A DNA stretch of 63,754 nt, the filler included. It is 4 parts of 4 records of this genome, joined end to end, with 100 filler letters (N's around TTAATTAATTAA, not from the genome) between each part and the next. Parts side by side here need not be neighbours in the genome. Positions count along the whole stretch, not along the records: positions 57,685 to 63,754 come from SRR20825006_204; 3 more parts are not named here. The stretch is one strand, 5' to 3'. Under the pieces are notes generated by a model that was not told the origin of the DNA, did not search any database, and saw nothing but the letters and a program-made list of their open reading frames with translations. Positions within the stretch are counted from its first letter, which is position 1; each line of letters opens with the position of its first letter. Below are positions 21,818-63,754 of this stretch, piece after piece. A program made the translations under genes and the position numbers.

Positions 21818-21917
21818 NNNNNNNNNNNNNNNNNNNNNNNNNNNNNNNNNNNNNNNNNNNNTTAATTAATTAANNNNNNNNNNNNNNNNNNNNNNNNNNN
21901 NNNNNNNNNNNNNNNNN
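21818..21917. other. Artificial contig linker
   Basis: N-run + TTAATTAATTAA + N-run. Confidence 0.97.
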
Positions 21918-36494: not shown

Positions 36495-36594
36495 NNNNNN
36501 NNNNNNNNNNNNNNNNNNNNNNNNNNNNNNNNNNNNNNTTAATTAATTAANNNNNNNNNNNNNNNNNNNNNNNNNNNNNNNNNNNNNNNNNNNN
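36495..36594. other. Artificial contig linker
   Basis: N-run + TTAATTAATTAA + N-run. Confidence 0.97.
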
Positions 36595-44577: not shown

Positions 44578-44618
44578 CACCAAAATTATGATGCCGACTT
44601 CATGTTAAGGAGCGGCAT

Positions 44619-45269: not shown

Positions 45270-45282
45270 GCAAAACGCACCA

Positions 45283-46092
45283 GTGCGCATTTTCATCAAA
45301 ACTTCAGCTTGGGCAGTTTGGGCAGGGCGCTTAGCGCGCCTTGTGATTCCGATTTATATCGTTTCCATTGCTGCCCACCATATCGAGCTGATTGACGCCC
45401 CCGTTTTTGTGACCATGTTTGCTTTGGCCACTTTTTTGGGCGTTTCGGCATTGTTTGTCGGGATATTGGCTTTTGTGCGCCTGTGGTACACAGGTGACCA
45501 TGGCTGGGGCATGGCGAGTTGGGCAAATCTGATTGGCGTTGGGGCTACGGCAGTTTTGGCTTTGGCGATCCTTTTGGGCGCGCAATATCCATCAACCAAT
45601 CAAATCACCACCAACATCAACAATATACCTACACTGGGTGTCGCTTCGCTGGAAACACCAGAAAAGCGCGCCGAGCTTGAGCGTATGGCCAATGAAGTTG
45701 CGATCAGCTTTCCGACAGCGGTCACACGCGCTTACCCGTTGGGCGGTGATGAGATGTTGCCGCTGTTGGAGCGGCAAATCGCTGCCGCAGGGTGGGGCGG
45801 ACGCGTAACGCGCCAGTCGGCAACGGAAAGCGAAACCAATTATGCGGGCGATGTGAAAACCTGGTTGGGTTTTAAAGATCGCGTGGCCATCCGTGCCATA
45901 TACGATGAAAGCCAAACCGAAATTGATATGCGCTCAGCGTCATATTTCGGCGAGTCGGATCTTGGTGCAAATGGGCGGCGGGTTCAGTCTTTTCTAGCAG
46001 ATTTGGACGCTGCTGTGCGTCAGAAGCTCTTGGCCCTTAGTCGCCAAGCGCCAGTAGCCGAAGAGGCCATTTCAGAGGATGAAGAAGGCTAA
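45283..46092 (+). CDS. DUF1499 domain membrane protein
   Basis: Three N-terminal TM helices; GFKD and DMRSAS..G.SDLGAN..R motifs. Confidence 0.8.
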   Translation: MRIFIKTSAWAVWAGRLARLVIPIYIVSIAAHHIELIDAPVFVTMFALATFLGVSALFVGILAFVRLWYTGDHGWGMASWANLIGVGATAVLALAILLGAQYPSTNQITTNINNIPTLGVASLETPEKRAELERMANEVAISFPTAVTRAYPLGGDEMLPLLERQIAAAGWGGRVTRQSATESETNYAGDVKTWLGFKDRVAIRAIYDESQTEIDMRSASYFGESDLGANGRRVQSFLADLDAAVRQKLLALSRQAPVAEEAISEDEEG

Positions 46093-46101
46093 GGCTTTCT
46101 G

Positions 46102-47028
46102 CTAGACCGCGATGAAGGTCGGCTGACGCAGCAAGCGTCGTTGCTTCTTCAACGCGCCCTGTTCTGCGAGATAATGCAAATGTGCTTTCACTGTCAGCAG
46201 GGCAGCGCCTCTAACAGCCATAGACACATCTGGATACATTTTGTCGGTCAATTGCCACGCGGTAAGTGGGCCATGCTTCGCCAACAGATCAAGAATTTGC
46301 TTGTTGCGCTGCAAACGATGACCTTTCAGCGCTCTGGCATAGGATTTACCTTGCACAATCCGGTCGCCATGTGCAGGCAAATAGATTTGGCCCGGGCAAG
46401 ACAAAATCAAATCCATCGAATCAAGGTAAGGACCGAGCGCGCCATCAGGATCGGCAATAAGGGTGGAGTTCCACCCCATAATATGATCGCCGGTTAAAAT
46501 GTGGGCGCGGTCTGAAAGCGCGAAGCACACATGATTGGCGCAATGACCCGGCGTTTCAATCACTTCGATCTGCACCGCACCGAAAGAGAGAATGTCCCCC
46601 TGTCGCAAGGTACGGTCAGGCTTAAGGCCGTAATGACCTGAGCGCTTCATAGGATCAATCTCAAACGGCCGTAAACTGCGGGCAGGGCGGTGCGGGCCGC
46701 CAAACATAAGCGGCACGCCATATTTTTCGGCAAGCTTAGGCGCCACTGCCGAATGATCGCGGTGCGTGTGCGTCAACAAAATTGCGCTGACCTTGCGGCC
46801 ATTAATGGCACGGTCCAAGGCATTGATGTGCACTTGCACGTCTGGTCCTGGATCGATGATGGCCAGCTCATCCTGCCCCACCAAAAAGCAGTTGGTGCCA
46901 GTAAAAGTATATGGCGATGCATTCGGCGCGACGATTCGCTCCACAAAGGGCGCAACACATTCCGCTTCGCCAATTTCAGGGGCAAAGTCGGTTTGATAGG
47001 TCGGCGCTGTTTGATGCTGCAAAGTCAT
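46102..47028 (-). CDS. MBL-fold metallo-hydrolase with C-terminal winged helix
   Basis: THTHRDH, TPGH, GDH, PAHG motifs. Confidence 0.9.
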   Translation of the reverse strand: MTLQHQTAPTYQTDFAPEIGEAECVAPFVERIVAPNASPYTFTGTNCFLVGQDELAIIDPGPDVQVHINALDRAINGRKVSAILLTHTHRDHSAVAPKLAEKYGVPLMFGGPHRPARSLRPFEIDPMKRSGHYGLKPDRTLRQGDILSFGAVQIEVIETPGHCANHVCFALSDRAHILTGDHIMGWNSTLIADPDGALGPYLDSMDLILSCPGQIYLPAHGDRIVQGKSYARALKGHRLQRNKQILDLLAKHGPLTAWQLTDKMYPDVSMAVRGAALLTVKAHLHYLAEQGALKKQRRLLRQPTFIAV

Positions 47029-47267
47029 AATCGCCTTAGGGCTAATGGGTGTGCTGAGAAAGCCCGAAATGTAGGGGCAAAACACAAGCACCGCAACAAT
47101 ATGCATTTTAATCAAATTGTGTGTGAACTGTGTAGACCTGATTGAGATTTGGCAAAAATGAAGCGGGCCGACAGAGTTGATAGGCCAAATTTCCACTCTT
47201 TGACGAAGCGAATGGGACGCTAAATACAAGTTTGTGCAAAAAGTTTGAAAAAGGTGGTTTTCAAAGG

Positions 47268-47296
47268 TTGCACATCGAAAATAAAACGCGTATAGA
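47268..47296 (+). promoter_or_regulatory. Sigma70 promoter of tRNA-Gln
   Basis: TTGCAC-N17-TATAGA, 35 nt upstream of the tRNA. Confidence 0.65.
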
Positions 47297-47331
47297 CCGT
47301 CACCGTTCAGTCATATTTTTGACGAACATGC

Positions 47332-47406
<75 letters not shown>

Positions 47407-47525
47407 TAATCTTCCTAATTTCCCGCACATTTATCCTATTAGCGAAATGGCGCATTGGTGCGTTTGAACGCATGTGTTATTGATCGCCTAAAAAGCGGCG
47501 CTGCCGCAACAATAGGGGATCAAAT

Positions 47526-48551
47526 ATGCAGCAAACGGCTAATCCAGTACTTGTTGAATTCACGCGCGGCAATTGGGTGGAAAATCGTCACCGTGCCGCA
47601 TTTTGCATTGCCGATTCGAGCGGACGAATCGTGGCCAGCGCTGGCGATATTGATCACCCCATTTTTCCACGCTCAGCGATTAAATCATTGCAAGCTTTGG
47701 CTCTGTTTGAAAGCGGCGCAGCGGAAAAATTTGATCTTGATGATCGTGACTTGGCGCTAGCCTGTGCCTCGCACAAAGGCGAGCCTGTGCATGTGGAAGG
47801 TGTTTTGCGCTTTCTCGACAAAATCGGCATGAGTGCTGACGACTTGGAATGCGGTGCCCATGTGCCCTCTGATGCGGTGGCCCGCAACGCCTTACGTGAA
47901 AAAGGTGAAGAGCCGAGTGCATTGCACAATAACTGCTCTGGCAAGCACACAGGCATGTTGGCCGTGGCCAAAGCGCTGGGCGTTGATCCCAAAGGTTACA
48001 TCGAGCAGGATCATGCGGTTCAAAAGCTTGTACGTGCCTGCGTAGAGCGCGCTGTGGGCGATACAATGAGCACAGACCGTTGTGGCCGCGATGGCTGTTC
48101 TATCCCCACCTGGGCGTCACCACTCCGTGGTTTTGCCGTTGGGTTCGCGAAGCTAAGCGATCCGAACTCAGATTTGCCAGACCTTTATAAAACAGCTGGC
48201 CAGCGCCTTTTCGACGCATGTGCGCAAAATGCGATGTTGGTGGCGGGCACAGATCGTATCGACACAAATGCGATGGATGCGTTTAAAGGCCAGTTGATGA
48301 TGAAGGTGGGCGCAGATGGCGTGTTCTGCGGCGCACTACGCGGCAGCCACCTTGGCTTTGCCCTCAAAGTGGATGACGGCTCTGTGCCTGCTGCTGAAGC
48401 GATTGTTGCAGGCTTGGTGGCACGTTTGGCCGATGCATCTGAAGAGCAAAAGAAATTGCTGGCGCAATGGTCGCACAAATCCACGAAAAACTGGCGCGGC
48501 TTTGAAGTGGGCACAGCACATCTAAGCGGTGAATTTGCCTCGTTCTTCTAA
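47526..48551 (+). CDS. L-asparaginase II (Rhizobium-type)
   Basis: RSAIK, CASH, HNNCSGKH, DGC motifs. Confidence 0.9.
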   Translation: MQQTANPVLVEFTRGNWVENRHRAAFCIADSSGRIVASAGDIDHPIFPRSAIKSLQALALFESGAAEKFDLDDRDLALACASHKGEPVHVEGVLRFLDKIGMSADDLECGAHVPSDAVARNALREKGEEPSALHNNCSGKHTGMLAVAKALGVDPKGYIEQDHAVQKLVRACVERAVGDTMSTDRCGRDGCSIPTWASPLRGFAVGFAKLSDPNSDLPDLYKTAGQRLFDACAQNAMLVAGTDRIDTNAMDAFKGQLMMKVGADGVFCGALRGSHLGFALKVDDGSVPAAEAIVAGLVARLADASEEQKKLLAQWSHKSTKNWRGFEVGTAHLSGEFASFF

Positions 48552-48563
48552 GAAGTTATGCGT

Positions 48564-49907
48564 TTAGCCAACAACATTGTTGGACACATAAATATGGTCT
48601 GGCGCGCGCTGCGTCAGATCATCAAAGGCAATATCTTGCCACTTGCTGCCCACAAGCGGTTGCTCGCATTCAAACAATGAATTGCCCGTAATGTTGATCG
48701 GCCCGTCACCTTCAACGGCAGAAGCGGCAACACCATATTTGCATTTGCGCACCAAATTGCCGTTGGCCAGCAAATTACGGTGATAAGGCCCCCAGCCGAG
48801 CAACATACCAGCACCGGGCACATTTTCCACCACATTGCCTGTGATGTTGCAATCTGCCTCCGCAGCGATGCCGAGCGGGATCGTGTCCGGATTGTTCGGG
48901 CTCTTCTCCCAAATATTGCGCACAATATTGTTGGAACATACGGCGAGATAGCCACCATCATTATAGTTGGTGATTGAGATGCCAGTGGCAGCCTCATCAA
49001 TCAGATTATTGCTGATCAGTGAGCCGGAAAACCCAAATTCGGAAAAAATGGCGACTTCGCCCAGCCGCTGGCAATTATTGCCAAGAATTTGGGTGTTGCG
49101 GGTACCATTGGCACGCACAGCGGTGAAGCCGCAATCGCTGATCACATTATTGGCCACAATCACATTTTGGGCGCGAAACACATTGATGCCATTGCCATTT
49201 TGCCCATTGCCGCCGCTGCGCCATTCAATATTTTGAATTTGGTTGTTGGCAACAATCGTCCCATCAAAACCCGGTTCATCGCGCCAGATCAAAATGCCAT
49301 TATTGCCACAGCCTTTGATGATATTTCCGCGCACTTGCGACTGCACGCCATTATTAAGAAAAATCGCGGCACTGCCCATCTGCTCGAAGCGGTTGCTGTT
49401 GATCTGCACCTGCGCGTCATAGCCCCAAACGCCATGCTTAGCGCTGGCAAAGAAGCCACATTCCTCAATGTTCACATTGCGCACGGACTGCATGTAAAGA
49501 ATGGCGTCTGCCGCCAAATCTTGCGCCCCGACCACATCAAACTGCTCAAGTGCAATATTTTGCGCTCCGATCAGTGAAAAGACGGGCTTGTCGGTCATCT
49601 GCACCAATTTTGTCGCGCTGCCCGCGCCAATAATTTGGGTGCCAGAGGGAAGGGCGACGTTGGAAATCTGATAGCTGCCAGCAGGCAAAAACAGTTTTTG
49701 CTTGGCGCTATTAGCGGCATTCACTGCCGTGTTCAGTGCCTCAGCCTGATCATAAGGTGCACCGGGCGTGAGGCCGAAATTACGACCATCCAAAAGAGCG
49801 CCGCTGACTGGGCTTTGCGCAAATGCAGTTGCTGACAGACCAGCCAAACTGGCTCCGCCCAAAATAGATGCACCACTTGATAGTAAAAAGCGACGCCGGT
49901 TCAACAT
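48564..49907 (-). CDS. Tat-exported beta-helix repeat protein (TIGR03808-like)
   Basis: NRRRFL twin-arginine signal; GGNGQNGNGINVFRA; Asn-rich beta-helix repeats. Confidence 0.8.
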   Translation of the reverse strand: MLNRRRFLLSSGASILGGASLAGLSATAFAQSPVSGALLDGRNFGLTPGAPYDQAEALNTAVNAANSAKQKLFLPAGSYQISNVALPSGTQIIGAGSATKLVQMTDKPVFSLIGAQNIALEQFDVVGAQDLAADAILYMQSVRNVNIEECGFFASAKHGVWGYDAQVQINSNRFEQMGSAAIFLNNGVQSQVRGNIIKGCGNNGILIWRDEPGFDGTIVANNQIQNIEWRSGGNGQNGNGINVFRAQNVIVANNVISDCGFTAVRANGTRNTQILGNNCQRLGEVAIFSEFGFSGSLISNNLIDEAATGISITNYNDGGYLAVCSNNIVRNIWEKSPNNPDTIPLGIAAEADCNITGNVVENVPGAGMLLGWGPYHRNLLANGNLVRKCKYGVAASAVEGDGPINITGNSLFECEQPLVGSKWQDIAFDDLTQRAPDHIYVSNNVVG

Positions 49908-50015
49908 GCATTCCTCCCCGATCAATACGCCTATTGAGCGCGATCTTGCCGGGAAATGCAAGCCATGCACTGGGTTACTGGTTAACTTATGCCGAGATAA
50001 TTCTAGGCGTGTGCC

Positions 50016-50342
50016 CTAGGTTTTGCGCAACTTCACTGCGGTGCCGGAGCAGGTGACCATCAACATCGCACCGCGCGAGCCAACTGTTTCGTAATCCAAA
50101 TCCACACCGATCACCGCATCTGCGCCGATGGCGCGTGCGCGATCACACATTTCTTCCAGAGCGGCTTTGCGCGACTTGCTAAGAGTTTCCTCATAAGCGC
50201 CGGAGCGGCCGCCAATATAGTCGGTGACGGTGGCCATCAAATCGCGAATGAAATTGGCACCCAAAATGGTTTCGCCCATCACGATGCCCATATATTCGGT
50301 GATCTCAAAGCCGTCTAATGTGTCGGTTGTGGTTGTTAGCAT
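50016..50342 (-). CDS. YbjQ (UPF0145) family protein
   Basis: GAN..RD......[22 protein letters not shown]. Confidence 0.92.
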
Positions 50343-50521
50343 GTACCAGCCCCCAAAAATTCATCTGCACGACAAATGGGGCAAGCCTGCCACAATTTCA
50401 AGTCAGTCCCGACGAAAGCCCCATCGGTTGGGCATATTTGTCAAAAAAATCAATGGTCCTATTGAGATTTCAGTGTTGCGCGGCTTATATGGATACTCAA
50501 ATTTTTGGAAGGGCATATTGG

Positions 50522-52054
50522 ATGTTTGTTGACGGCAAGGTCTATCTTGGCACTAGCACCCAAGCTGAATATCTTGATCTTAAACTGGCCAACCGCCACG
50601 GCCTGATCACCGGCGCAACCGGCACAGGCAAAACCGTTAGCCTCCAAATCATGGCCGAAGGGTTCTCACGCGCAGGCGTGCCCGTGTTTTGTGCGGACGT
50701 GAAAGGCGATCTTTCCGGCATCGCGGTGAGCGGAGAAAGCAAAGACTTTCTGGAAGAACGCGCCCAAAATATCGGTTTTGATGATTACGTCTATGAAGCC
50801 TTCCCAACCATTTTCTGGGATTTGTTCGGCCGTCAGGGCCATCCAATCCGCGCAACCATTTCTGATATGGGACCGCTATTGCTGGCACGCTTGCTGGACC
50901 TGACCGAGGTACAGGAAGGTGTGCTCAACATCGCGTTCGCTTACGCAGATGATGAAGGGCTTTTGCTGCTCGATCTGAAAGATCTACGGGCGATCTTGGC
51001 CAATATTGATGAGAATGACGATGTGATCTCGCGGCGATATGGCCGGGTTTCACGCTCATCCATCGGGGCCATCCAACGGTCTTTGTTGGTGTTGGAACAG
51101 CAAGGGGCAGAGCATTTCTTTGGCGAACGGGCGCTGGATATTCGCGACCTGATGCGTACCGACAAAGATGGACGCGGCATTGTGAGCGTTTTGGCTGCAG
51201 ATGAGCTGATGCAATCGCCGCGCCTTTACGCGACATTCCTTCTGTGGCTGCTGTCCGAATTGTTTGAAGAGCTGCCCGAGGTGGGCAACCCGGATAAGCC
51301 ACATTTGGTGTTCTTTTTTGATGAAGCGCATTTGCTGTTTGATGACGCGCCAGACGCCTTGATGGACAAGGTGGAGCAGGTGGTCAAGCTTGTGCGTTCA
51401 AAAGGGGTGGGCGTTTATTTCGTCACGCAAAACCCTTTGGACATTCCTGACCCGGTGTTGGCGCAATTGGGCAACCGCGTGCAACATGCGCTGCGGGCCT
51501 ATACCCCGCGGGAGCAACGCGCAGTTAAAACGGCAGCAGATACATTCCGCCCGAACCCGGATTTCAACACAGCAGATGTGATCACCCAATTGGGCGTGGG
51601 CGAAGCCCTAGTCTCAACGCTGGAGAAAAAGGGTGTGCCCTCAATTGTTGGCCGCACCATGATGCGTCCGCCATCATCGCGCTTGGGGCCAATTTTGCCG
51701 GAAGAGCGTGCCGTGATCATCAAGCAAAGTCCGGTTGCCTCGCTTTACGCGGAAACGCTGGACCGAGATTCTGCATATGAAGAATTACAGCGCCGTGCTG
51801 AAGCCAAATTGCGTGAAGAAGAACTGCAACTTGAGCGGGAAAAGCAGGACGATTTTGGCGATCTGTGGGAAACGCGCACAGGCTATCGCGATAAATACCG
51901 CGATGACCGGCCTAAAACTCAACGTAAAACCCGCCGTTCAACCCGGCAAACGCCTACTGAGGCTGCGGTGAAAACTTTTGCCCGCACAGTGGCGCGACAG
52001 TTGGGAAACCAACTTGTTCGTGGTATCTTGGGTTCACTGAAGCGGGGACGGTAG
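50522..52054 (+). CDS. HerA-like ATPase (DUF853/YjgR)
   Basis: [36 protein letters not shown]. Confidence 0.9.
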
Positions 52055-52055
52055 A

Positions 52056-52601
52056 ATGAAGGGCAAGAAGCCAATTAAAACCGCAGGATTTTTGGTGCCA
52101 GCCGGACGGGCAGAACACCAAAAACAAATCACCACCGCCCATAATATGGGTGAGTTTCTTGCTCAAAAAAATGTCGATATTTGTTGCGGCATGCCCACAG
52201 GTGAAGTGGCATCTGCGTTTGCCTCTGGCGCGCTGACCAAGGGCGGCCGTGTGATCATCTATCACCAACAAAATACGCCAAGTGTGAAGCTGCCTGAAGG
52301 CGGCGAAATCATTGAGATTGACGGCTCACCCATGAAACCCGTCGCTGAATCGGTTTCCCATTTCTGGGTTTTGCCATGTGGCGTGAAAGATCTGGGCCGC
52401 TATTTGGAAACGTGGCTGGCGTCAGCTTGTCGACCACTTGTTTGCTTGTCCAAAAATGACGAGTTCTTGTTGCTGCGCGGCTTTGTTGAAGAAATCGTCG
52501 CGGTCGATCGGCCAGACGCATTGGAAAAAATCATCTTCGCCAAAACGGTAGAAGAAGGTTGGGACCGCGTTGCCAATCTGCTCTCAGAGCAAGTCCGCTA
52601 A
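52056..52601 (+). CDS. Degenerate LOG/SLOG-fold protein
   Basis: N-terminal G.FLA....I..G...A.GAL..GGRV pattern resembles LOG; PGGxGT motif altered. Confidence 0.45.
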   Translation: MKGKKPIKTAGFLVPAGRAEHQKQITTAHNMGEFLAQKNVDICCGMPTGEVASAFASGALTKGGRVIIYHQQNTPSVKLPEGGEIIEIDGSPMKPVAESVSHFWVLPCGVKDLGRYLETWLASACRPLVCLSKNDEFLLLRGFVEEIVAVDRPDALEKIIFAKTVEEGWDRVANLLSEQVR

Positions 52602-52631
52602 TCATTGCATTTTAGGTGAAAGGGAAGCCGC

Positions 52632-53195
52632 TTAGTGCGGTTTGTCGGCGAGGCCCATCATTTTGGCGCGATAGGCGGCAAACTCGATCACATTGTCATG
52701 CTGGCTGGCCACATCATTGTTGAGCGGGCGCCGTAAATTTTCATTTTGGTTTGTTTCTTCACGCCAGTCTCGGCTAGAGGCGGCAGAAGTGGGGATGCGC
52801 ACAAATTGCCCATCAGCGCCCAACCGTGCGCTCACGCGCTCTTTGATATAGGCGGGCGACATGGGTTTGACGATAATTTCATCAATGCCTGCATTCACCA
52901 CACTGGCCTGCAATTCCCGATCAATATTTTTGATCATGGTGATGGTCTGCAACGCCTCAATATCAATATTAGGATTAGAGCGCAGACTGTTCAGCACATC
53001 CGGCGCTGAGCGGTCGGCAAGCTGATAATCAAGGATCAACAGGTCGAGCGGGGCAATATCGGCATAGCGAAGCAAATGCGCAGCGCTGGAAAATTCACGC
53101 AGCCGCAAACCCGTAATGTCGCGCAACACCATGGCGAGAATCGAGCTGAGCGCCGAATTTTGCGTAAGAATCCCAACTACTTTGGTTTGAAACAA
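52632..53195 (-). CDS. Response regulator receiver-domain protein
   Basis: DLLILDY phosphoacceptor region and IVKP; no recognisable output domain. Confidence 0.8.
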   Translation of the reverse strand: MFQTKVVGILTQNSALSSILAMVLRDITGLRLREFSSAAHLLRYADIAPLDLLILDYQLADRSAPDVLNSLRSNPNIDIEALQTITMIKNIDRELQASVVNAGIDEIIVKPMSPAYIKERVSARLGADGQFVRIPTSAASSRDWREETNQNENLRRPLNNDVASQHDNVIEFAAYRAKMMGLADKPH

Positions 53196-53211
53196 ATCAC
53201 CTCTCCCATGG

Positions 53212-53227
53212 TTAAAGAATGGTTAAC
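53212..53227. promoter_or_regulatory. CtrA-box-like site
   Basis: TTAA-AGAATGG-TTAAC equals TTAA-N7-TTAAC, immediately upstream of the receiver gene. Confidence 0.7.
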
Positions 53228-53275
53228 ACTTAGGAGGGGGCGTTGCCTAGAGATTCGTTTGTTTTTTCACAGCAC

Positions 53276-53310
53276 AAAAAAACTCGCCAAACCCAAGGGC
53301 TTGGCGAGTT
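53276..53310 (-). terminator. Intrinsic terminator of the superoxide dismutase gene
   Basis: AACTCGCCAA...TTGGCGAGTT with adjacent A-run. Confidence 0.75.
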
Positions 53311-53337
53311 GATCATCAAAACAATCTGTTAGATTGC

Positions 53338-53934
53338 TTATTTCGCAGCTTCGTAAAGCTCCGCAACATATTCCCAGTTTACCAATGAGTCGAAGAATGC
53401 TTCGAGATATTTTGGACGGGCATTGCGGTAATCGATGTAATAAGAATGTTCCCAAACGTCACAGCCCAACAATGGTGTTTCGCCATGTACCAATGGGTTT
53501 TCGCCGTTAGGTGTTTTGGTGACGGCCAACTTGCCGTCTTTCATCACAAGCCATGCCCAGCCTGAGCCAAACTGAGTTGCACCAGCGTTCAAAAACGCCT
53601 CACGGAACTCATCAACTGAGCCCAAGTCAGACTTGATTTGAGCTTCCAAATCACCAGGAATAGAACCACCGCCATTTGGCTTCATCCATTTCCAGAAATG
53701 GATGTGGTTGTAGTGCTGTGCCGCATTGTTAAACAAACCAGCATTTTTGCCGAAGCTTTCGCGCACAACATCTTCCAATGACTTGCCTTCAAGGCCAGAG
53801 CCTTCAAGCAATTTGTTGCCATTGGTCACGTAAGCTTGGTGGTGCTTATCGTGGTGATATTCAAGCGTTTCAGCTGACATATATGGGTTCAATGCATCAT
53901 ATGCATAGGGGAGTTCTGGCAATTCAAAAGACAT
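53338..53934 (-). CDS. sodB: Fe/Mn superoxide dismutase (probably Fe)
   Basis: HHDKHH, NAAQHYNH, FGSGWAW, DVWEHSYY. Confidence 0.9.
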   Translation of the reverse strand: MSFELPELPYAYDALNPYMSAETLEYHHDKHHQAYVTNGNKLLEGSGLEGKSLEDVVRESFGKNAGLFNNAAQHYNHIHFWKWMKPNGGGSIPGDLEAQIKSDLGSVDEFREAFLNAGATQFGSGWAWLVMKDGKLAVTKTPNGENPLVHGETPLLGCDVWEHSYYIDYRNARPKYLEAFFDSLVNWEYVAELYEAAK

Positions 53935-54030
53935 GATCGGCCTCCAATTTTGTTCGTTTGTCTCAAGGTGATAACACTTATAATCGGTTCTTTGTTCCGC
54001 AACAAGAGTTATGGAAAGAAAAAACTTTCT

Positions 54031-56109
54031 TTATTTTAAGCGCTTCGTGGTTTTAAGGGCAAATGCATAGGCAAGCGCGGTCTCTTTGATCTTCTCAAAT
54101 CGACCCGACATGCCCGCATGGCCAGCGCCCATATGGGTTTTGAAAATCAGCGGATTCGCATCTGTTTTCAAATCACGCAATTTGGCAACCCACTTGGCAG
54201 GCTCCCAATATGTCACGCGCGGATCCGTCAAACCGGCCATCACAAACATAGCCGGATAATCCTTCGCCTCAACATTGTCATAGGGCGAATAGCTGGCAAT
54301 GTAATCATAATCCTCTTTTGAGGTGATGGGGTTGCCCCATTCCGGCCATTCTGGTGGGGTGAGGGGAAGAGTGTCGTCCAACATCGTGTTCAGCACATCC
54401 ACAAACGGCACCAGCGCGATGATTGAACCGAACAGTTCCGGCGCTTGGTTGGCCACAGCACCCATCAACATGCCGCCAGCGGAACCGCCCATTGCAGCGA
54501 TATTGCCCTTGGCGGTGTATCCTTGTTCAACCAACATTTCGCCGGCCGCGATAAAGTCGCTAAAGGTGTTCTTTTTATTGTGCTTTTTGCCTGCTTTGTA
54601 CCAGTTGTACCCTTTCTCCATGCCGCCGCGAATATGGGCAATAGCATAGACCATGCCACGATCCACAAGGGAGAGGGTGGTGATGGAAAAGCCCGCACCC
54701 ATAGACATGCCATAAGAGCCATAGCCATAAAGCATCAAGGGTGCGCTGCCATCGGGCTTGAAATCGGCGCGGTGCAAAATGGTCACAGGCACTTGGGCGC
54801 CATCAGGCGCCGTGGCAAACAAGCGACGGGTTACATAATCGACAGGGTTGTGACCAGAAGGGATCTCCTGCGTTTTACGCAAGGTGCGCTCTTTGGTTTC
54901 GATTTTATAATCAAACACTTGCGGTGGCGTGGTGGGAGAAGAGTAATAATAACGAATTTCGTCATTATCAAACTCATAACCGCCAGCAACGGAAAGCGTA
55001 TAGGCTTCTTCTTTAAAGCTGATTTCTTCCTCTGTGCCGCTATCCAACTCGCGCACGATCACACGCGGCAAGCCCTCAAACTCTTCCTTGCGGATCAAAT
55101 AGCGTGACTTGAGGAAATAGCCTTTCAGCAACACACCGGGCCGATGTGGCACCAAATCTTGCCAATTTTCCATGCCCGGCTCAGCAACCGGAGCGGTCAC
55201 CAATTTATAATCTTCTGCACCATCCGTGTTGGTGTGGATGTAGAACAGGCCATTAGCATCATCCACATGATATTCATGCCCATTTTTGCGCTCGGCAATC
55301 AGGGTAGGGGCATCCAACTTATGCGCGTCGATGAAACGCACTTCGCTGGTTTCATGGTCGTGGCTATCAATCAGAATATAATTGCCTGAATTGGTTTTGC
55401 CGACACCAAGAAAGAAACCGGAATCCGGCTCCTCATAAATCATTTTGTCATTGGCGGGGTCTTCACCCAAATAATGGTGAAACACCTTGTGGGGACGGTG
55501 ATTTTCGTCCTGAACGGTGTAGAAGAAGCTCTTGGAATCCGCGGCCCACGTCACGCCGCCCGTGGTGCTTTCAATTTTGTCTTCAAGCTCTTCGCCAGTG
55601 CTCAAATCACGCACAAAAATGGTGAAATATTCAGAGCCTTTGCGGTCGGCGGACCAAGCAAGCAATTTGTGGTCTGGCGAATGGCTTGTGCCGCCAGAGC
55701 GGAAATAGCCTTCTCCAGCTTCCTTATTCATATCGATCAACACATGCTCATTGCCGCCATCGCGATCTGATCGACAAATCTGCGGATATTGCTGCCCTTC
55801 AAGCGTGCGGGTGAAATAGGCAAAGTCGCCATCTTTAAATGGCACCGAGCTATCATCTTCTTTGATGCGGCCGCGGATTTCTGCGTAAATCTCTTCACGC
55901 AGCGCAGCGCTATCATCCATATGCGCTTCGAAAAATGCATTCTCAGCTTCAAGATAGGCGCGAATATCCTTGTCCAACACTTCAGGATCACGCATGACCT
56001 GCTGCCAATTATCATCGCGCAGCCAATGATAAGGGTCGTTCCGCTCAATCCCGTGGTGAGTGGTCAAATGATCCTTCTTGGCGGCTTTGGGGGGCGTTAA
56101 ATCACTCAT
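54031..56109 (-). CDS. ptrB: Oligopeptidase B (S9A); start at 56109 or 56121
   Basis: DPYHWLR, GGSAGG, DPRV..WEPAKW, AGH catalytic triad motifs. Confidence 0.9.
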   Translation of the reverse strand: MSDLTPPKAAKKDHLTTHHGIERNDPYHWLRDDNWQQVMRDPEVLDKDIRAYLEAENAFFEAHMDDSAALREEIYAEIRGRIKEDDSSVPFKDGDFAYFTRTLEGQQYPQICRSDRDGGNEHVLIDMNKEAGEGYFRSGGTSHSPDHKLLAWSADRKGSEYFTIFVRDLSTGEELEDKIESTTGGVTWAADSKSFFYTVQDENHRPHKVFHHYLGEDPANDKMIYEEPDSGFFLGVGKTNSGNYILIDSHDHETSEVRFIDAHKLDAPTLIAERKNGHEYHVDDANGLFYIHTNTDGAEDYKLVTAPVAEPGMENWQDLVPHRPGVLLKGYFLKSRYLIRKEEFEGLPRVIVRELDSGTEEEISFKEEAYTLSVAGGYEFDNDEIRYYYSSPTTPPQVFDYKIETKERTLRKTQEIPSGHNPVDYVTRRLFATAPDGAQVPVTILHRADFKPDGSAPLMLYGYGSYGMSMGAGFSITTLSLVDRGMVYAIAHIRGGMEKGYNWYKAGKKHNKKNTFSDFIAAGEMLVEQGYTAKGNIAAMGGSAGGMLMGAVANQAPELFGSIIALVPFVDVLNTMLDDTLPLTPPEWPEWGNPITSKEDYDYIASYSPYDNVEAKDYPAMFVMAGLTDPRVTYWEPAKWVAKLRDLKTDANPLIFKTHMGAGHAGMSGRFEKIKETALAYAFALKTTKRLK

Positions 56110-56113
56110 AATC

Positions 56114-56533
56114 TCACTCATCTTCCGGTTGCGGCACAAAGTTCAAAGCGGTTCCATTGGTGCAATATCGTTTTCCTGTGGGTTGTGGCCCATCTTCAAA
56201 CACATGTCCAATATGTGATTTGCAATTGCCGCAAATTATTTCTGTTTTGCGCGAAAAAAAGGTGCGCTGGGCTTGTAGTTCGACTGCGCCACCTTGCGCC
56301 TCGTCATAAAAACTGGGCCAACCTGAGCCTGAATCATATTTATGCTGTGCGGCAAAAAGCAGCGCCCCACAAGCTTTGCACAAATATTGGCCGGGCGCAC
56401 TTTGCTTGTCATATGCATGCGAAAAGGCACGCTCGGTGCCCTTTTTGCGCAGCACATAATATTCCAGCTCACTCAGCTCTTGCTGCCAGTCTTGCTCAGA
56501 CTTTTGCTCGTTTGGTGGGTTTGACATACTCAA
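56114..56533 (-). CDS. msrB: Methionine-R-sulfoxide reductase
   Basis: GTERAF, SGSGWPSF, HIGHVF.DGP.PTG.RYC.N. Confidence 0.93.
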   Translation of the reverse strand: MSMSNPPNEQKSEQDWQQELSELEYYVLRKKGTERAFSHAYDKQSAPGQYLCKACGALLFAAQHKYDSGSGWPSFYDEAQGGAVELQAQRTFFSRKTEIICGNCKSHIGHVFEDGPQPTGKRYCTNGTALNFVPQPEDE

Positions 56534-56816
56534 TCAGGAAAGAATTGTGTTGGCAGTAACGCTTTAATTTGGGGAGCCTAAGCGAAACAATCAAGTCTTT
56601 GCAAAAAAAGGTGACGGTGTTTATACCGTATTTTTGATTTCGCTGATCCGAAAACACTGCAAAACCGTTGTTTCAGCGGCACTTGCCCTTGTCGTTTTCC
56701 TACAGACCGGGTCAAATTGTTTAACTTTTTTCTGCGATTCGAAATAGTGCGGAATAAAAGACGCTAAATTGCAAGATTGCGCCAAACATATTGGCGCGCC
56801 GAATGGAGAGTGATCA

Positions 56817-57584
56817 TTGTCCGACTTGCCAAATCACCATGCCTTGTTGCTGATTGCGCTGGCGCCGTTTGTGGCCGCCTTGTTCGCGCCATGGGTTAAT
56901 CGGTTTGCCAAAGGAATCTCTGGCTGGATTTTGGCCACCGTGCCAGCTGCCATCTTTTTGGTGCTGACCACCTTTATCGGTGACATTGCAGAGGGGCAAA
57001 CCAAGTCTTTCGCCATTTCATGGGTGGATGGACGCTATTTCCACTTCCCCATCAATTTGAGCTTCTTCGTTGACGGTCTTTCGCTGCTCTTTGCGCTGCT
57101 TATTTCCGGCATCGGCACATTTATCGTCACCTATTCAGGTGGTTATTTGAACGGCCACCGCCATCAGGGGCGGTTCTTCTCGTTCATTCTGATGTTCATG
57201 GGCTCCATGCTGGGCTTGGTGTTGGCAGACAACATCATCACCTTGTTCGTGTTTTGGGAACTCACATCCATCACATCATTTTTGCTGATTGGCTTTAATC
57301 ACAATAAAGAGGCTTCGCGCCGCGCCGCCATTCAAGCGCTTGTGGTTACGGGCGGGGGCGGCTTGCTGCTCTTGTTCGGCCTATTGATGATTTTTGCTGT
57401 GAGCGGTCATAGCGAACTGAGCACATTGCTCACAGATCAAAATGTGCTGCGCGACAGCCCGTTTTATTTGATGATTTTGCTGTTGGTGCTTGGCGGTGCC
57501 TTCACCAAATCAGCGCAAGTGCCGTTCCATTTCTGGTTGCCCAACGCAATGGAAGCGCCAACACCTGTTTCAGCCTATCTGCAC
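56817..57584 (+). CDS. Mrp/Pha Na+(K+)/H+ antiporter subunit A, truncated by contig end
   Basis: [39 protein letters not shown]. Confidence 0.9.
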
Positions 57585-57684
57585 NNNNNNNNNNNNNNNN
57601 NNNNNNNNNNNNNNNNNNNNNNNNNNNNTTAATTAATTAANNNNNNNNNNNNNNNNNNNNNNNNNNNNNNNNNNNNNNNNNNNN
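57585..57684. other. Artificial contig linker
   Basis: N-run + TTAATTAATTAA + N-run. Confidence 0.97.
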
Positions 57685-57716
57685 GGTCGCAGGTTCGAAT
57701 CCTGCCACCCCGACAA
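57685..57716 (+). tRNA. 3' part of a tRNA, probably tRNA-Pro; candidate att core
   Basis: GGTCGCAGGTTCGAATCCTGCCACCCCGAC is a T-arm plus acceptor 3' strand typical of tRNA-Pro; anticodon not visible. Confidence 0.75.
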
Positions 57717-57942: not shown

Positions 57943-59172
57943 ATGCACGTTTCAAACACATTTTCCATTCTTTTTTGGTTGCATACAGCCAAGCAAAAAG
58001 ACAATTTAGCCCCTATTTACGTACGTATTACTGTTAACGGTAAAAGGACAGAAATTAGCTTAAAACGAACTGTATCGGTTACCTCTTGGGACAGTTCTAA
58101 AAATCGGGTTATTGGTAGGACAGATAGGGTAAAAAGTATTAATTCCTTTTTAGACCAGACACATGCCAAATTGCAGGATTGTTATAGTCAACTACAAAGT
58201 GAATTAAAGCTCATTACAGCACAAAGTATCAAAGCACGGTTTCTTGGTGCTGACGAAAACCATAAGACGCTTCTAGAGCTTATAAAGTATCATAACACAA
58301 ATATGAATGGTACTATTAAGCAAGGAACGATGAAAAATTACTTTAGTACAGAAAAATATTTAAAAAAGTTTCTGCTAAAGAAAATAAAAAGCAACGACAT
58401 CTACCTAAAGCACATCTCTTATAGTTTTATTGTTGATTTTGAAACTTTTTTAAGAACAGCTCCTACTTTAAAAAAACATCAACCATTGAGTAATAATGGT
58501 ATTATGAAACATTTGGAACGGTTAAAAAAACTTATCAACCTTGCTCTAAAACTGGAATGGATAGATAAAGACCCTTTTGCAAGATATAGCTTGAAGTTTA
58601 CAAAATTTGACAGGGTTTATCTTAATAAAGAAGAGTTGGAACAATTGGAGGGTACATCCTTTAAAAATACAACGCACCAAAAGACAAGAGATGTATTTGT
58701 ATTTGCCTGTTATACGGGGTTATCTTATGCGGATATAAAGACATTAACTTCTTCACATATTGTAAGAGGTATTAACGGAGAGTATTGGATTTATACCCGA
58801 AGAGAGAAAAGTAATACTTCGGTTAAAGTTCCATTACTGGATAAAGCACTGTCAATTATTAAAAAATATGATGAGAATCAAGATAGTAGCTCTAATCAAG
58901 TATTACTTCCAGTTTGTAGCAATCAGAAAATGAATAAGTACTTAAAAGAAGTAATGCAAGAATGTAAGATTCACAAAAGGATTACTTTTCATGCAGCAAG
59001 GCACACTTTTGCTACTACAGTTACGCTTTCTAATGGAGTTCCCATAGAAACCGTTTCTAAACTTTTAGGGCATACAAAAATAACGACTACTCAAATCTAT
59101 TCAAGAGTATTGGAACAAAAGATTGGAGATGATATGTTTGCTCTAAAGACAAAATTAAATATGGCTACATAA
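57943..59172 (+). CDS. Tyrosine site-specific integrase, Bacteroidetes type
   Basis: Arm-binding N-terminus (PIYVRITVNGKR), YTGLSYAD, HAARHTFAT, LGH, TTQIY. Confidence 0.95.
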   Translation: MHVSNTFSILFWLHTAKQKDNLAPIYVRITVNGKRTEISLKRTVSVTSWDSSKNRVIGRTDRVKSINSFLDQTHAKLQDCYSQLQSELKLITAQSIKARFLGADENHKTLLELIKYHNTNMNGTIKQGTMKNYFSTEKYLKKFLLKKIKSNDIYLKHISYSFIVDFETFLRTAPTLKKHQPLSNNGIMKHLERLKKLINLALKLEWIDKDPFARYSLKFTKFDRVYLNKEELEQLEGTSFKNTTHQKTRDVFVFACYTGLSYADIKTLTSSHIVRGINGEYWIYTRREKSNTSVKVPLLDKALSIIKKYDENQDSSSNQVLLPVCSNQKMNKYLKEVMQECKIHKRITFHAARHTFATTVTLSNGVPIETVSKLLGHTKITTTQIYSRVLEQKIGDDMFALKTKLNMAT

Positions 59173-59488: not shown

Positions 59489-60451
59489 ATGCGAACCATA
59501 CTCTTATTAATCTTATCGATCAAATGTCTGTTTTCATTCGCTCAAAATAATGAATTAAAGTGTTCTAAAAGTGACACTTTAGTTATTATCGAGAAGAATT
59601 CTGAAAAAGGTTTTTATCATGACTATATCTTGTTTATTCCAAAAGAAACACCCTTTAACAAAAAAACATACCTACTGGTAGAGCCAAATAATACAGGTAG
59701 AACTACCGATAGTATAGAAGTTCATAAAAAGTATGCTATTGATTTAGCGTCAATAAGTTCTGTAGGAAACAATGTTTCTACAATGCTAAAAATACCCTTA
59801 CTGGTTCCTATATTTCCTAGACCTGCCAAGCAAGAATTAATCTACACTCATGCATTAGACAGAGATGTTATGTTAGAAAAATCTCCTGAATTAAAACGGC
59901 TAGACTTACAATTACTTGCCATAATTAATGATGCTAAAATAGTTTTAAACAAAATGAATATTCAAGTTGATTCAAAAGTATTTATGAGTGGTTTTTCTGC
60001 ATCTGCCACGTTTACAAATCGTTTTTCTTTTATACATCCAGAAGCTATAAAAGCATTAGCCATTGGTGGGTTTAATGGTGAACTGATGCTACCTCAAAAG
60101 GATATTAATGGTACAAAATTAAATTACCCTCTTGGTCTAAACGATTTCACGGTTTTATTTGATAAAAAATTTGATATTGCTTCCTTTAAACAAATTACCC
60201 AATTTATTTATATGGGTGAATTAGATGAAAATGATGCTGTTCAGTTTGATGATGCCTACAGTGAGCATGAACGCCAAATCATTAACAACTACTTAGGGAG
60301 AGAAGTACAAGTAAGGTATTTAAAATGTCAAGAGTTATATTTGGAGAAAAACATTTTTCCGCTTTTTGAGAACTATGAAAATGTTGGACATTGGACAACT
60401 TCAGAAATAAATTTTGCTGTGATAAAATTCTTTTTCAATCAAATGAAATAA
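59489..60451 (+). CDS. Secreted alpha/beta-hydrolase-like hypothetical protein
   Basis: Signal peptide; nucleophile-elbow-like GFSAS, GELDEND, VGH. Confidence 0.6.
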   Translation: MRTILLLILSIKCLFSFAQNNELKCSKSDTLVIIEKNSEKGFYHDYILFIPKETPFNKKTYLLVEPNNTGRTTDSIEVHKKYAIDLASISSVGNNVSTMLKIPLLVPIFPRPAKQELIYTHALDRDVMLEKSPELKRLDLQLLAIINDAKIVLNKMNIQVDSKVFMSGFSASATFTNRFSFIHPEAIKALAIGGFNGELMLPQKDINGTKLNYPLGLNDFTVLFDKKFDIASFKQITQFIYMGELDENDAVQFDDAYSEHERQIINNYLGREVQVRYLKCQELYLEKNIFPLFENYENVGHWTTSEINFAVIKFFFNQMK

Positions 60452-61130: not shown

Positions 61131-61358
61131 TTAGATAGCTCTTTCTGGCCAAAAGTCTTTAGGAGAACATTTGAATATTTTGGCAATTGCATTTAGATGA
61201 TTCAAATTGTATTTGGCTCTTCTGCTTTTAGCTTCTACATGAGATATAAAACTATCGTTCATTTCCAGTCTCTGAGAAAGCTCTAATTGTGTAATGTTGA
61301 GCTCTAAACGCTTTTTTCTAATTGAATTTATTATATGTTGTTCTATATCAGTTGCCAA
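61131..61358 (-). CDS. Xre-family HTH transcriptional regulator
   Basis: IRKKRLELNITQLELSQRL...FISHVE...LNAIAKIF; TTG start. Confidence 0.88.
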   Translation of the reverse strand: MATDIEQHIINSIRKKRLELNITQLELSQRLEMNDSFISHVEAKSRRAKYNLNHLNAIAKIFKCSPKDFWPERAI

Positions 61359-61404: not shown

Positions 61405-61422
61405 AATGGTACATGTACCATT
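61405..61422. promoter_or_regulatory. Perfect 18-bp palindrome, candidate HTH operator
   Basis: AATGGTACATGTACCATT between the divergent HTH and sigma genes. Confidence 0.7.
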
Positions 61423-61464: not shown

Positions 61465-61830
61465 AGCATTAAAAGCATTGTCCTTAACAATATTTTAGTG
61501 CATACTAAATATAGACTCCCATATAAAAAGTTATCTATAACAAATGCTTTTTAGGATATTTAAAAGAGAAATTAAAATAATTGGTTTTTTCCGTTATGGG
61601 GATGGTGTAACTGTATTTGATATTCTATTTAAGAAAAAGCCAAAGAACCCAATATGATATTTTTAATTATAGGATACCCTGTTGCACTTTTTTAATTCCG
61701 GTAATCGATAATTTTAATCCTATAATTCACGCACTTCATTTTTCATGGTATCCGGCCATGCTTCTATTAATAAAGATTTAATGTTGATTCTTTCTTGTCA
61801 TTACAGGGCTAGGCAATTGCATGGCTTTGA
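61465..61830 (+). ncRNA. Putative structured leader or ncRNA upstream of the sigma gene
   Basis: No ORF of 60 aa or more; successive inverted repeats AAAAGCATT/AATGCTTTT, TTGGTTTTTTC/GAAAAAGCCAA, AATTATAGGAT/ATCCTATAATT, GCCATGC/GCATGGC. Confidence 0.35.
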
Positions 61831-61872: not shown

Positions 61873-62658
61873 ATGCCACACACAAACTTTGAATTATTAA
61901 AAAATAATGATCCCGCTGCTTTGGTTAAAATTCATGCGCAATACAACAGAAGTATCTTCTGGGTGGGCAAGCGATGGCTGGATGATGAATTTGTGATAGC
62001 AACCTTGGTTCAAAATGTTTTTTTAAAACTGTGGGTTTGTAGGGATAGAATAGAAACACCAAAACATATTTACTTTTTCTTAAAGTTTGTGATGAAAAGA
62101 GAATGTATATCCTACTACAGCAAGCCCAGAAATAAGTTTTATAGAAAAATTTATTCCTTAGATAATTTCAATAATTATCAAGATTATATGGTAGGCTATA
62201 ACCCAGAAAAAGTCGATACACATCTTCAAGATCAGGAATTCGAACAGCAGCAATTTGAAAAGCTCAAGAAGGTATTACCTCTCTTAAGTAACGAGAGAAA
62301 GCATCTAATAGAACTCTGTTTAAAATACGGTTTTCAATATAAAGCAATTGGTGCAGTGATGGGAAAAGGTATTACAGAGACCAGTAACGAGGTTAAAAGA
62401 GCCATAGAAGATTTAAAAACCATCATCCATCAGGGAGGTATGAAGGCAGTTATGAAAAGTCCAACTATTGGGATAAAGGTTCAAGGTGTAATGACCGAAG
62501 AACAAAAAAGAGTATTGGAGTTACGATGTAAAGAGAAACAGTCTTTTGCATTTATCGCCAATGAACTTAAACTATCCCAAAAGGAAGTCCACAAAGAATT
62601 TGTGGCTGCCTATAAGCTAATGCAAGAGCAACATAAGCAGCAATTAAAATCAGCATAG
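61873..62658 (+). CDS. Atypical ECF sigma factor (RpoE-like) with an extra C-terminal sigma4-like HTH
   Basis: sigma2 LVQNVFLKLW; sigma4 LSNERKHLIEL...YKAIGAVMG; second MTEEQKRVLELR...SFAFIANELKLS; ATG 61873. Confidence 0.8.
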   Translation: MPHTNFELLKNNDPAALVKIHAQYNRSIFWVGKRWLDDEFVIATLVQNVFLKLWVCRDRIETPKHIYFFLKFVMKRECISYYSKPRNKFYRKIYSLDNFNNYQDYMVGYNPEKVDTHLQDQEFEQQQFEKLKKVLPLLSNERKHLIELCLKYGFQYKAIGAVMGKGITETSNEVKRAIEDLKTIIHQGGMKAVMKSPTIGIKVQGVMTEEQKRVLELRCKEKQSFAFIANELKLSQKEVHKEFVAAYKLMQEQHKQQLKSA

Positions 62659-62660
62659 TT

Positions 62661-63754
62661 ATGGGGAAATCAACACTTAAACTCACTCGAAAGATTCAGA
62701 TACTAGTAGACCTGCCAACCAAAGAAGAGCGGAAGGAGAAACTAGACAAATTATATCAATACCAGAATCGGTGCTTTAGAGCAGCGAATATTATGATGTC
62801 TCATATGTATGTGCAGGAAATGATCAAAGACTTTTTTTACCTCTCCGAAGGAATTAAGTATAAACTAGCAGATGAGAAAAAAGATAAAGATGGTATTTTG
62901 CAGCGTTCCCGTATGAATACTACTTTCCGAGTGGTGTGTGACAAGTTTAAAGGAGAAATACCAACCGATATTCTATCGAGCTTGAACAATACCTTGTTGT
63001 CCACTTTTAACAAGAACAAATCGGATTACTGGAAAGGACTCTGCTCCCTACGAAATTTTAAAAGAGACATGGCATTTCCGTTCCCTGCGAAAACAATGAG
63101 TCGGATTTCCTATAATCCTGATAAAAAGGCATTTTGTTTCCGTTTGTTTTCCATACCGTTTAAAACATATTTAGGAAAAGACTATACTGATAAACGAAAA
63201 TTATTAGAGCGTTTGGTTGAAGGAAATATGAAACTATGTACTTCAAAGATTAAATTAAAGGATGGAAAAATATTTTGGCTAGCGGTATTTGAAATTGAGA
63301 AAGAAGAGCATGCTCTTAAACCTGAAGTTATCGCAGAAGCTTCGCTTTCTCTTGAGTATCCTATAGTAGTTAAAACGGGCAAAACAAAACTTACTATTGG
63401 AAGTCGAGAAGAATTTTTATACCGAAGGCTAGCTATACAAGCCGCCTATAAAAGAACACAGGAAGGAATTACTTATTGTAAATCAGGAAAAGGGAAAAAG
63501 CGAAAATTAAAGGCTGTGGAGAAGCTTCGAGATGCAGAAACTAATTATGTATCCCATCGCTTACATTTATACAGTAGAAAACTGATTGATTTTTGTGTAA
63601 AGAATCAAGTGGGAACGCTGATTTTAATAAATCAAGAGGACAAAATCGAGATTGCTAAAAAGGAGGATTTTGTCCTTAGAAATTGGAGTTATTATGAGTT
63701 AATGACTAAAATAAAATACAAAGCCGATAAGGCAGGTATTGAGCTTATTACAGC
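62661..63754 (+). CDS. Cas12f/TnpB-like protein with substituted RuvC residues (dCas12f-like); runs off the window end; not in ORF track
   Basis: 364 open codons from ATG 62661 (MGKSTLKLTRKIQILV...); HLYSRKLIDFC..NQVGTL and LRNWSYYELMTKIKYKADKAGIEL are Cas12f/TnpB RuvC-region motifs; IAEASLS replaces the usual GVDLG. Confidence 0.85.
   Translation, partial: MGKSTLKLTRKIQILVDLPTKEERKEKLDKLYQYQNRCFRAANIMMSHMYVQEMIKDFFYLSEGIKYKLADEKKDKDGILQRSRMNTTFRVVCDKFKGEIPTDILSSLNNTLLSTFNKNKSDYWKGLCSLRNFKRDMAFPFPAKTMSRISYNPDKKAFCFRLFSIPFKTYLGKDYTDKRKLLERLVEGNMKLCTSKIKLKDGKIFWLAVFEIEKEEHALKPEVIAEASLSLEYPIVVKTGKTKLTIGSREEFLYRRLAIQAAYKRTQEGITYCKSGKGKKRKLKAVEKLRDAETNYVSHRLHLYSRKLIDFCVKNQVGTLILINQEDKIEIAKKEDFVLRNWSYYELMTKIKYKADKAGIELIT

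Follow-up and report, generated by a model that had tools for sequence, protein, structure and literature searches.

At its end, between positions 61873 and 63754, the 63,754-nt stretch of DNA analysed here (hereafter the window) carries two adjacent genes, rpoE and dcas12f, which very probably make up a module for RNA-guided transcription like those that Hoffmann et al. described for Flagellimonas taeanensis (Nature 2026, doi 10.1038/s41586-026-10166-7; PMC12259090) and by Xiao et al. (bioRxiv 10.1101/2025.06.10.658880; structures PDB 9n9c, 9n9m, 9n9o and 9n9q). A first, sequence-only reading of this DNA had assigned the locus to the class formed by rpoE, a dead cas12f and an hth gene, and had noted that the class was already known. 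Both statements hold: the two proteins are close full-length homologs of the characterised F. taeanensis pair, and the class was published in 2026 with cryo-electron microscopy structures. Our direct observations concern homology, the state of domains and residues, gene order and, in the nearest available genome, a guide gene together with its sites.

The window consists of four contigs joined by three 100-nt linkers (44 N, TTAATTAATTAA, 44 N) at 21818-21917, 36495-36594 and 57585-57684, and only the 6,070-nt contig from 57685 to 63754 is physically linked to rpoE-dcas12f. The sequence-only reading had taken the window as cutting off the assessable end of the dcas12f open reading frame (ORF); position 63754 is instead the end of a contig in a joined-contig window. 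Beyond it we used the nearest genome, G001, which is distinct from the window's own assembly, as a proxy. The 6,070-nt contig is 100% identical to G001 over its whole length, and aligning its final 2,594 nt without gaps gave 0 mismatches. This contig thus comes from a G001-like organism, so that G001 is a fair proxy past the contig end. Elsewhere, contig 2 (21918-36494) matches G001 at 99%, contig 1 at only 66-73% and partly over the same G001 region as contig 2, and positions 44000-57584 had no match in G001. The joined window seems, from these comparisons, to mix two related organisms.

The dcas12f gene (62661..63754, + strand) starts with an ATG located 2 nt past the TAG of the sigma gene (stop at 62656-62658), on the same strand, and remains open through 364 codons until the window ends (62661..63752 (+) in the ORF listing), as had been read from the letters. 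All the Cas12f/TnpB motifs quoted at that stage were found in the translation, with the residue numbering correctly given (Ser228 within IAEASLS, Ile323 within GTLILINQ). In a phmmer search of PDB sequences, the best match was 9n9c_A, 'Nuclease-deactivated Cas12f' (365 aa), with E=3.4e-188 and residues 1-363 aligned to 1-363; identity is ~76% (276/363, counted by hand on the printed alignment). Active Cas12f structures were weaker matches (E=3e-41 to 1.5e-07) and reach ~90 residues beyond the query end. The sequence-only reading had looked to sequence past the contig for the stop codon: in the identical G001 locus the ORF ends ...GIELITA and is closed by a stop after residue 365. Since that locus is 100% identical, the window ORF, with 364 of 365 codons, lacks only Ala365 and the stop.

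Truncation relative to active Cas12f raises the question of whether dcas12f could be a decaying TnpB/Cas12f pseudogene next to an ordinary ECF (extracytoplasmic function) sigma factor. Besides the missing C-terminus, curated family models stay below their cut-offs, with 18.4 bits against 30.5 for Pfam OrfB_IS605 and 59.5 against 100 for NCBIfam guided_TnpB. Yet the truncated length is itself conserved: 989 homologs were found at E<=1e-5, and 106 of the best 120 of them are exactly 365 aa long. Of 29 related loci, 25 encode 365 aa and one 364; in another the length, taken from a later match start, is 362, and in the remaining two the frame is interrupted. The window frame itself is unbroken, two dCas12f copies at 99-100% protein identity are present in G001, and a solved, functional homolog has this same length. 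We consider decay so improbable as to be practically negligible. The low model scores agree with the earlier statement that standard annotation would miss dcas12f, as do the best 120 of the 989 homologs, which carry no precomputed Pfam domain and, where a source names them, go under 'hypothetical protein' or 'transposase'. In L029 (titled Empedobacter falsenii) and L031 (Cytophaga sp.), the dcas12f frame closes early, at 231 and 184 aa, respectively, and homologous sequence goes on beyond that point, suggesting that these copies are frameshifted or broken.

To describe the catalytic positions, we used an alignment of 31 sequences, the query and 30 homologs picked from 150 listed: 15 long (415-517 aa) and 15 short, the short ones chosen by length and spread; counts of 16 short sequences include the query. 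At the RuvC-I column, occupied by Ser228 in the query, Asp is present in 13/15 long sequences and in 0/16 short ones. At the RuvC-II column, where Ile323 aligns without gaps, Glu is found in 14/15 long and 0/16 short sequences. Beyond the last residue of the query, 14/15 long sequences, and no short one, go on with a ribbon rich in Cys and a motif of the ADYNAA type, which we take to be the zinc finger and RuvC-III. Ser228 as the RuvC-I Asp position, proposed by eye in the sequence-only reading, is borne out by pairwise alignments to 9nzr and 9nzo as well as by the 31-sequence alignment.

The proposal of Ile323 for the RuvC-II Glu fared less well: it agrees with the 31-sequence alignment, but two pairwise HMMER alignments, to 8hr5 and 7wju, place this Glu on Glu326. 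Among 121 close family members, none has Asp at 228, only L, V, M or I are found at position 323, and Glu326 is kept in 101. In F. taeanensis dCas12f, the lid motif begins at residue 325 (Xiao et al., bioRxiv 10.1101/2025.06.10.658880). Because of these three points (the invariably hydrophobic position 323, the incidence of Glu326 and the start of the lid), Ile323 is favoured but not proven, and is less certain than Ser228. RuvC-III and the zinc finger had been considered unassessable because the window ends; read through the identical G001 ORF, which stops at 365 aa, this segment is truncated away. Conserved RuvC mutations and C-terminal truncation are also reported for the class (Hoffmann et al., PMC12259090; Xiao et al., 10.1101/2025.06.10.658880). 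With Ser228, Ile323 and neither zinc finger nor RuvC-III segment, DNA cleavage by dCas12f is, as judged from these residues and domains, not possible.

The upstream gene, rpoE (61873..62658, + strand), encodes from its ATG at 61873 an ECF-type sigma factor of 261 aa, the length of the solved partner RpoE. It matches PDB 9n9q_C 'RpoE' (261 aa) with E=9.5e-100 in phmmer, residues 3-261 aligning without gaps to 3-261, at ~58% identity (149/259, hand count on the printed alignment). The NCBIfam sigma70-ECF model spans residues 16-183 only; a second region-4-like match was obtained at residues 206-240, and the C-terminal extension covers approximately residues 190-261. In the solved complex, this extension docks onto the truncated RuvC domain (Xiao et al., 10.1101/2025.06.10.658880). 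The structure paper names ten sigma residues for contacts with dCas12f, DNA or RNA polymerase, and every one of them is kept, under the same number: H65 and Y105 (DNA melting and sigma finger), L137 and I184 (lid contact), H144 and Y152 (named functional residues), and R218, F225, H240 and F243 (interface of the C-terminal extension). On the dCas12f side, the lid residue F337 is kept as well.

These residues bear on a second possibility, in which dCas12f would act as a repressor and the sigma factor would be a mere co-transcribed neighbour. Nuclease-dead relatives of TnpB and Cas12 that repress genes are known, among them repressors that resemble TnpB but lack nuclease activity (TldR; bioRxiv 10.1101/2023.11.30.569447), and a related dCas12f clade without sigma, linked to CRISPR, has been proposed to repress efflux genes (Hoffmann et al., PMC12259090). 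Like TldR, the window protein is a nuclease-dead member of the TnpB/Cas12 family, presumably domesticated to control host genes through an RNA guide. However, TldR represses and is not known to have a dedicated sigma partner, whereas the window protein falls into a Cas12f-derived, sigma-coupled activator clade. In the window, the sigma factor has the extension together with R218, F225, H240 and F243, which bind the truncated RuvC in the solved complex; the closest solved homolog, ~76% identical, activates transcription; and the predicted targets described below lie ~0.6 kb upstream of susC starts in the same orientation, which is the published activator geometry. A repressor role is thus very improbable.

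Activation by dCas12f and sigma would call for a guide RNA, which in the published class comes from a single gene directly 3' of dcas12f and ends in a guide of 14-16 nt. The sequence-only reading had left both guide and target open; a guide gene and three candidate targets were found in G001, all of them outside the window. Judging from G001, the scaffold would start ~17 nt beyond the last base of the window. In L001, the identical G001 locus, the guide RNA gene occupies 2611-2695. G001 also contains a second rpoE-dcas12f-guide copy at C1:407155-409478 (L002/L048), 99% identical in protein and 96% in DNA, the DNA value being for a query that begins within the hth-rpoE spacer and runs up to the end of the window. 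Downstream of both copies, ~105 nt are identical before the sequences diverge. A pattern search recovered the scaffold, GAGGGTG...CATATACAAC, with a 3' segment of varying sequence behind it, in 25/27 related loci, 9 of which have a second copy. The distance from stop codon to scaffold is 11-18 nt in 24 loci and 111 nt in L027, and the sequence 3' of ACAAC varies among lineages. RNAalifold applied to 24 sequences gave three hairpins with 17 pairs, 3 of them with compensatory changes; Rfam contains no family for this guide RNA, nor for the ~190-nt element introduced below.

The position of the guide was read from loci of other genera. In L011, L017 and L024, which represent three of them, the locus has an upstream site reading cggG followed by GCGTGGGCT..., flanked by G and starting GCGTGGGC. 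These G-flanked GCGTGGGC sites indicate that the guide starts right after ACAAC and that the flanking base is G, as published. The G001/window lineage reads ACAAC-G-GCGTGGGCTTTCTT, and the guide in the G001 proxy is predicted to be GCGUGGGCUUUCUU preceded by this G. The extra G before the guide (L001 2676-2695) is shared by this lineage and L030, most other loci having C there. As a consequence, the guide gene itself carries a G-flanked perfect match, and might target itself. A third, orphan guide gene with the same guide and a slightly diverged scaffold is located 2.4 kb further on, at C1:404686 of G001 (L033).

We then searched G001 with the 12-nt guide core, allowing up to 1 mismatch. This gave 11 matches, against 4 for a reversed control. 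Three of the 11 are the guide genes, two after the dcas12f copies and the orphan. Three others read G(G/A)CGTGGGCTCTCTTATT and lie within a common ~190-nt element upstream of SusC/SusD ORFs; these are the three G001 sites that match the 14-nt guide next to a 5'-G. The matches in L036, L037, L038, L040 and L041 are without the flanking G or the extended match, as read from their flanks, and were judged to be chance in view of the 4 control matches. Each of the three retained sites is upstream of a large ORF pair and in the same direction. Their flanking G lies at C1:2284265, C1:3650944 and C2:69455 (minus strand) of G001. The susC ORF (~1,000 aa) has TonB-receptor Plug and CarboxypepD_reg domains, and its partner (~470 aa) is SusD-like. 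For two of the sites, the distance to the downstream susC start is ~610 and ~640 nt. At the third site, an IS1595-family transposase gene (L046 7825-8727, - strand) stands between site and susC, and may uncouple that operon from a guide-directed start. In L044, an S9 peptidase gene follows susC-susD and a divergent HTH_3 gene is present upstream. The arrangement at the three sites corresponds to 'category I' of Hoffmann et al. (PMC12259090). The regulon predicted for G001 would thus consist of three susC-susD operons for nutrient uptake, with an S9 peptidase gene in one or more of them.

The ~190-nt element that surrounds these sites, found at L039, L042 and L043 (~1350-1580) and in L004-L030 (~1750-2110), also occurs in the hth-rpoE spacer of 11/30 related loci that belong to several genera (lowest nhmmer E 5e-47), and is probably the published hth-associated noncoding RNA. 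With the three G001 elements as queries, nhmmer did not find it in the window, in either G001 module locus or in L047/L048. A blastn comparison of the element with the window returned weak matches only, the best one near the locus having E=0.036. This match joins window 61722-61760 to L039 ~1874-1912 (40 nt, 80%) and includes the near-palindrome CATGG.ATCCGGCCATG. It would connect the leader of one target susC with a region that precedes rpoE by ~110 nt, and may be due to chance.

Several observations weigh against the assignment of the locus as a working guide-directed activator. The guide gene and its targets lie outside the window and were read from G001, identical as it is over the 6,070 nt. 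Folded as a single sequence, the guide RNA is no better than shuffled sequences (z = -0.86). The extra G after ACAAC leaves the 5' edge of the guide uncertain by 1 nt. All three sites depart from the guide at one core position, and the L039 site shows a further difference at guide position 1, A in place of G. Two versions of the site, searched for in the window with up to 3 mismatches, gave 0 matches; there is hence no sign of auto-activation in cis. Near the target-adjacent motif, M85, R90 and S106 of dCas12f are kept, but the window protein differs from the solved one by Y89F, H110N and Q144K, so that its motif preference may differ. The pairwise placement of the RuvC-II Glu on Glu326, given above, belongs with these points.

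Another possibility is that the module is real but, owing to the guide-target mismatch or to the altered residues near the target-adjacent motif, acts in this organism on sites other than the three susCD loci, or is currently idle. None of the predicted sites matches the guide perfectly, residues H110 and Q144, which touch the DNA beside the target in the solved protein, are N and K in the window dCas12f, and the IS1595 transposase gene separates one target from its susC. Against this, the core mismatch is guide T versus site C in all three sites, which would give an rU:dG wobble pair, and native sites match their guides at 13-14 of 14 positions, activity being obtained with guides of more than 10 nt (Hoffmann et al., PMC12259090). 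The three sites are located within a conserved element that carries cis targets in other genera, and N at position 110 is found in 48/121 family members. We therefore regard other targets or a silent module as unlikely, and retain the assignment to an RNA-guided activator of the published class.

In this assignment, RNA binding, sigma recruitment and activation are steps that we infer by homology to the solved system. The 365-aa dCas12f would bind a single guide RNA of ~85-90 nt encoded just 3' of its gene, and would dimerise on this one RNA. An R-loop would form at a site matching the 14-nt 3' guide beside a 5'-G. The lid would then become helical and contact sigma region 4, and the C-terminal extension of the co-transcribed sigma would dock onto the truncated RuvC, filling the missing part. 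Sigma would bring RNA polymerase, and transcription would be expected to begin, with no need for -35 or -10 motifs, ~46 bp downstream of the flanking G, or 45-48 bp at the three G001 sites. Dimerisation of dCas12f on one guide RNA, and a lid that turns helical and touches sigma region 4, are both described for the solved complex (Xiao et al., 10.1101/2025.06.10.658880).

The locus adds a close relative to a published and structurally solved class, whose mechanism, structure and link to susCD are already published. The F. taeanensis system and the window share a dCas12f of 365 aa, a sigma factor of 261 aa, the same order of hth, rpoE and dcas12f, a truncated and inactive RuvC, and a sigma extension with all contact residues; as predicted for the window from G001, the guide RNA gene in next place, a single guide RNA with a 3' 14-nt guide and susCD targets with a 5'-G would be common to both as well. 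They differ in sequence (identity ~76% for dCas12f and ~58% for sigma, including the three substitutions Y89F, H110N and Q144K), in the extra G between scaffold and guide, in the ~190-nt element, which is missing from the hth-rpoE spacer of the window, and in the setting of the window locus, which adjoins a tRNA-Pro and an integrase. Hoffmann et al. catalogued 660 homologs; in both versions of their paper the main text is free of the words 'Galbibacter', 'integrase' and 'tRNA'.

Active type V-F Cas12f proteins (9nzr, 9nzo, CnCas12f 8hr5, AsCas12f 7wju and UnCas12f 7l48) are homologous to the window protein through the lid and the next strand. They keep Asp and Glu at RuvC-I and RuvC-II and have ~90 more C-terminal residues with zinc ribbon and RuvC-III, all of which the window protein is without. 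Active Cas12f uses CRISPR arrays and a trans-activating CRISPR RNA (tracrRNA). The window locus, in contrast, has no array and, by G001, a single guide RNA. A search for CRISPR-like repeats found none on the 6,070-nt contig or in the 5 kb downstream in G001. The sequence-only reading had stated that both a CRISPR array and cas1/cas2 were lacking: the first part stands over this range, and for the second, neither Cas1 nor Cas2, nor a FecR-type anti-sigma factor, whose genes the published class also lacks, is among the four named larger ORFs of the contig, no search having been aimed at them.

The gene order around the module is also the published one, with a divergent hth followed by rpoE and dcas12f 2 nt apart. 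The hth gene (61131..61358, - strand) encodes a 75-aa Cro/C1-type helix-turn-helix (HTH) protein (Pfam HTH_3, E=6.4e-07, 29.7 bits for a cut-off of 23) and is separated from rpoE by 514 bp; published loci likewise carry an oppositely oriented hth gene (Hoffmann et al., PMC12259090). A scripted search found a perfect 18-nt palindrome, AATGGTACATGTACCATT, at 61405..61422, 47 nt upstream of the hth start codon. This distance fits the inverted repeats reported within 50 bp of such hth genes (Hoffmann et al., PMC12259090), and the palindrome is a candidate HTH operator.

The contig has five larger ORFs, four of which were named by Pfam and PDB searches (tyrosine integrase, HTH, sigma factor and dCas12f). 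It opens, directly after the linker, inside a tRNA-Pro(TGG) gene, of which the final 30 nt are present (57685..57714, + strand). In the identical stretch of G001 the whole tRNA-Pro is present at L047 6995-7070, the contig start corresponding to L047 7041. An Rfam search of the window returned tRNA-Gln at 47332 as its sole match. Directly downstream of the tRNA-Pro lies a gene for a 409-aa tyrosine integrase (57943..59172, + strand), identified by Pfam (Phage_integrase E=3.1e-23, Phage_int_SAM_5 3.6e-22, Arm-DNA-bind_5 3.2e-16). Between the integrase and hth genes, a further gene (59489-60451, + strand) encodes a 320-aa protein with a hydrophobic N-terminus that has no Pfam or NCBIfam family match. 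The protein atlas links it to 'hypothetical' clusters, with a weak esterase or alpha-beta hydrolase lead at rank 13.

A contig that starts in tRNA-Pro, with a tyrosine integrase next to it, hints at an island, and the tRNA-Pro/integrase site looks like an island hotspot. Within 4 kb downstream of the G001 guide gene (L047 14345-17629) are genes for another integrase, for an ArsR regulator and for a mercury-transport protein, MerT-HMA. Further hints, though not decisive ones, are the second module copy and the orphan guide gene of G001, and the silence of the Hoffmann et al. main text on integrases and tRNA. A search for attR, the right-hand attachment site, with the 23-nt pattern of the tRNA 3' end and up to 3 mismatches found no copy downstream of the locus in G001, and the island is not delimited. 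We can only tentatively, and with considerable doubt, propose that the rpoE-dcas12f-guide module travels as cargo of an integrative island at tRNA-Pro, spreading by duplication and plugging into a pre-existing, conserved ~190-nt target element in front of susCD operons.

Reading the raw sequence thus picked out a system that routine annotation misses. In G001, one guide carried by three guide genes is predicted to address three susC-susD operons, a prediction that can be tested. If the island proposal were true, RNA-guided control of nutrient uptake would be transferable horizontally as a unit.

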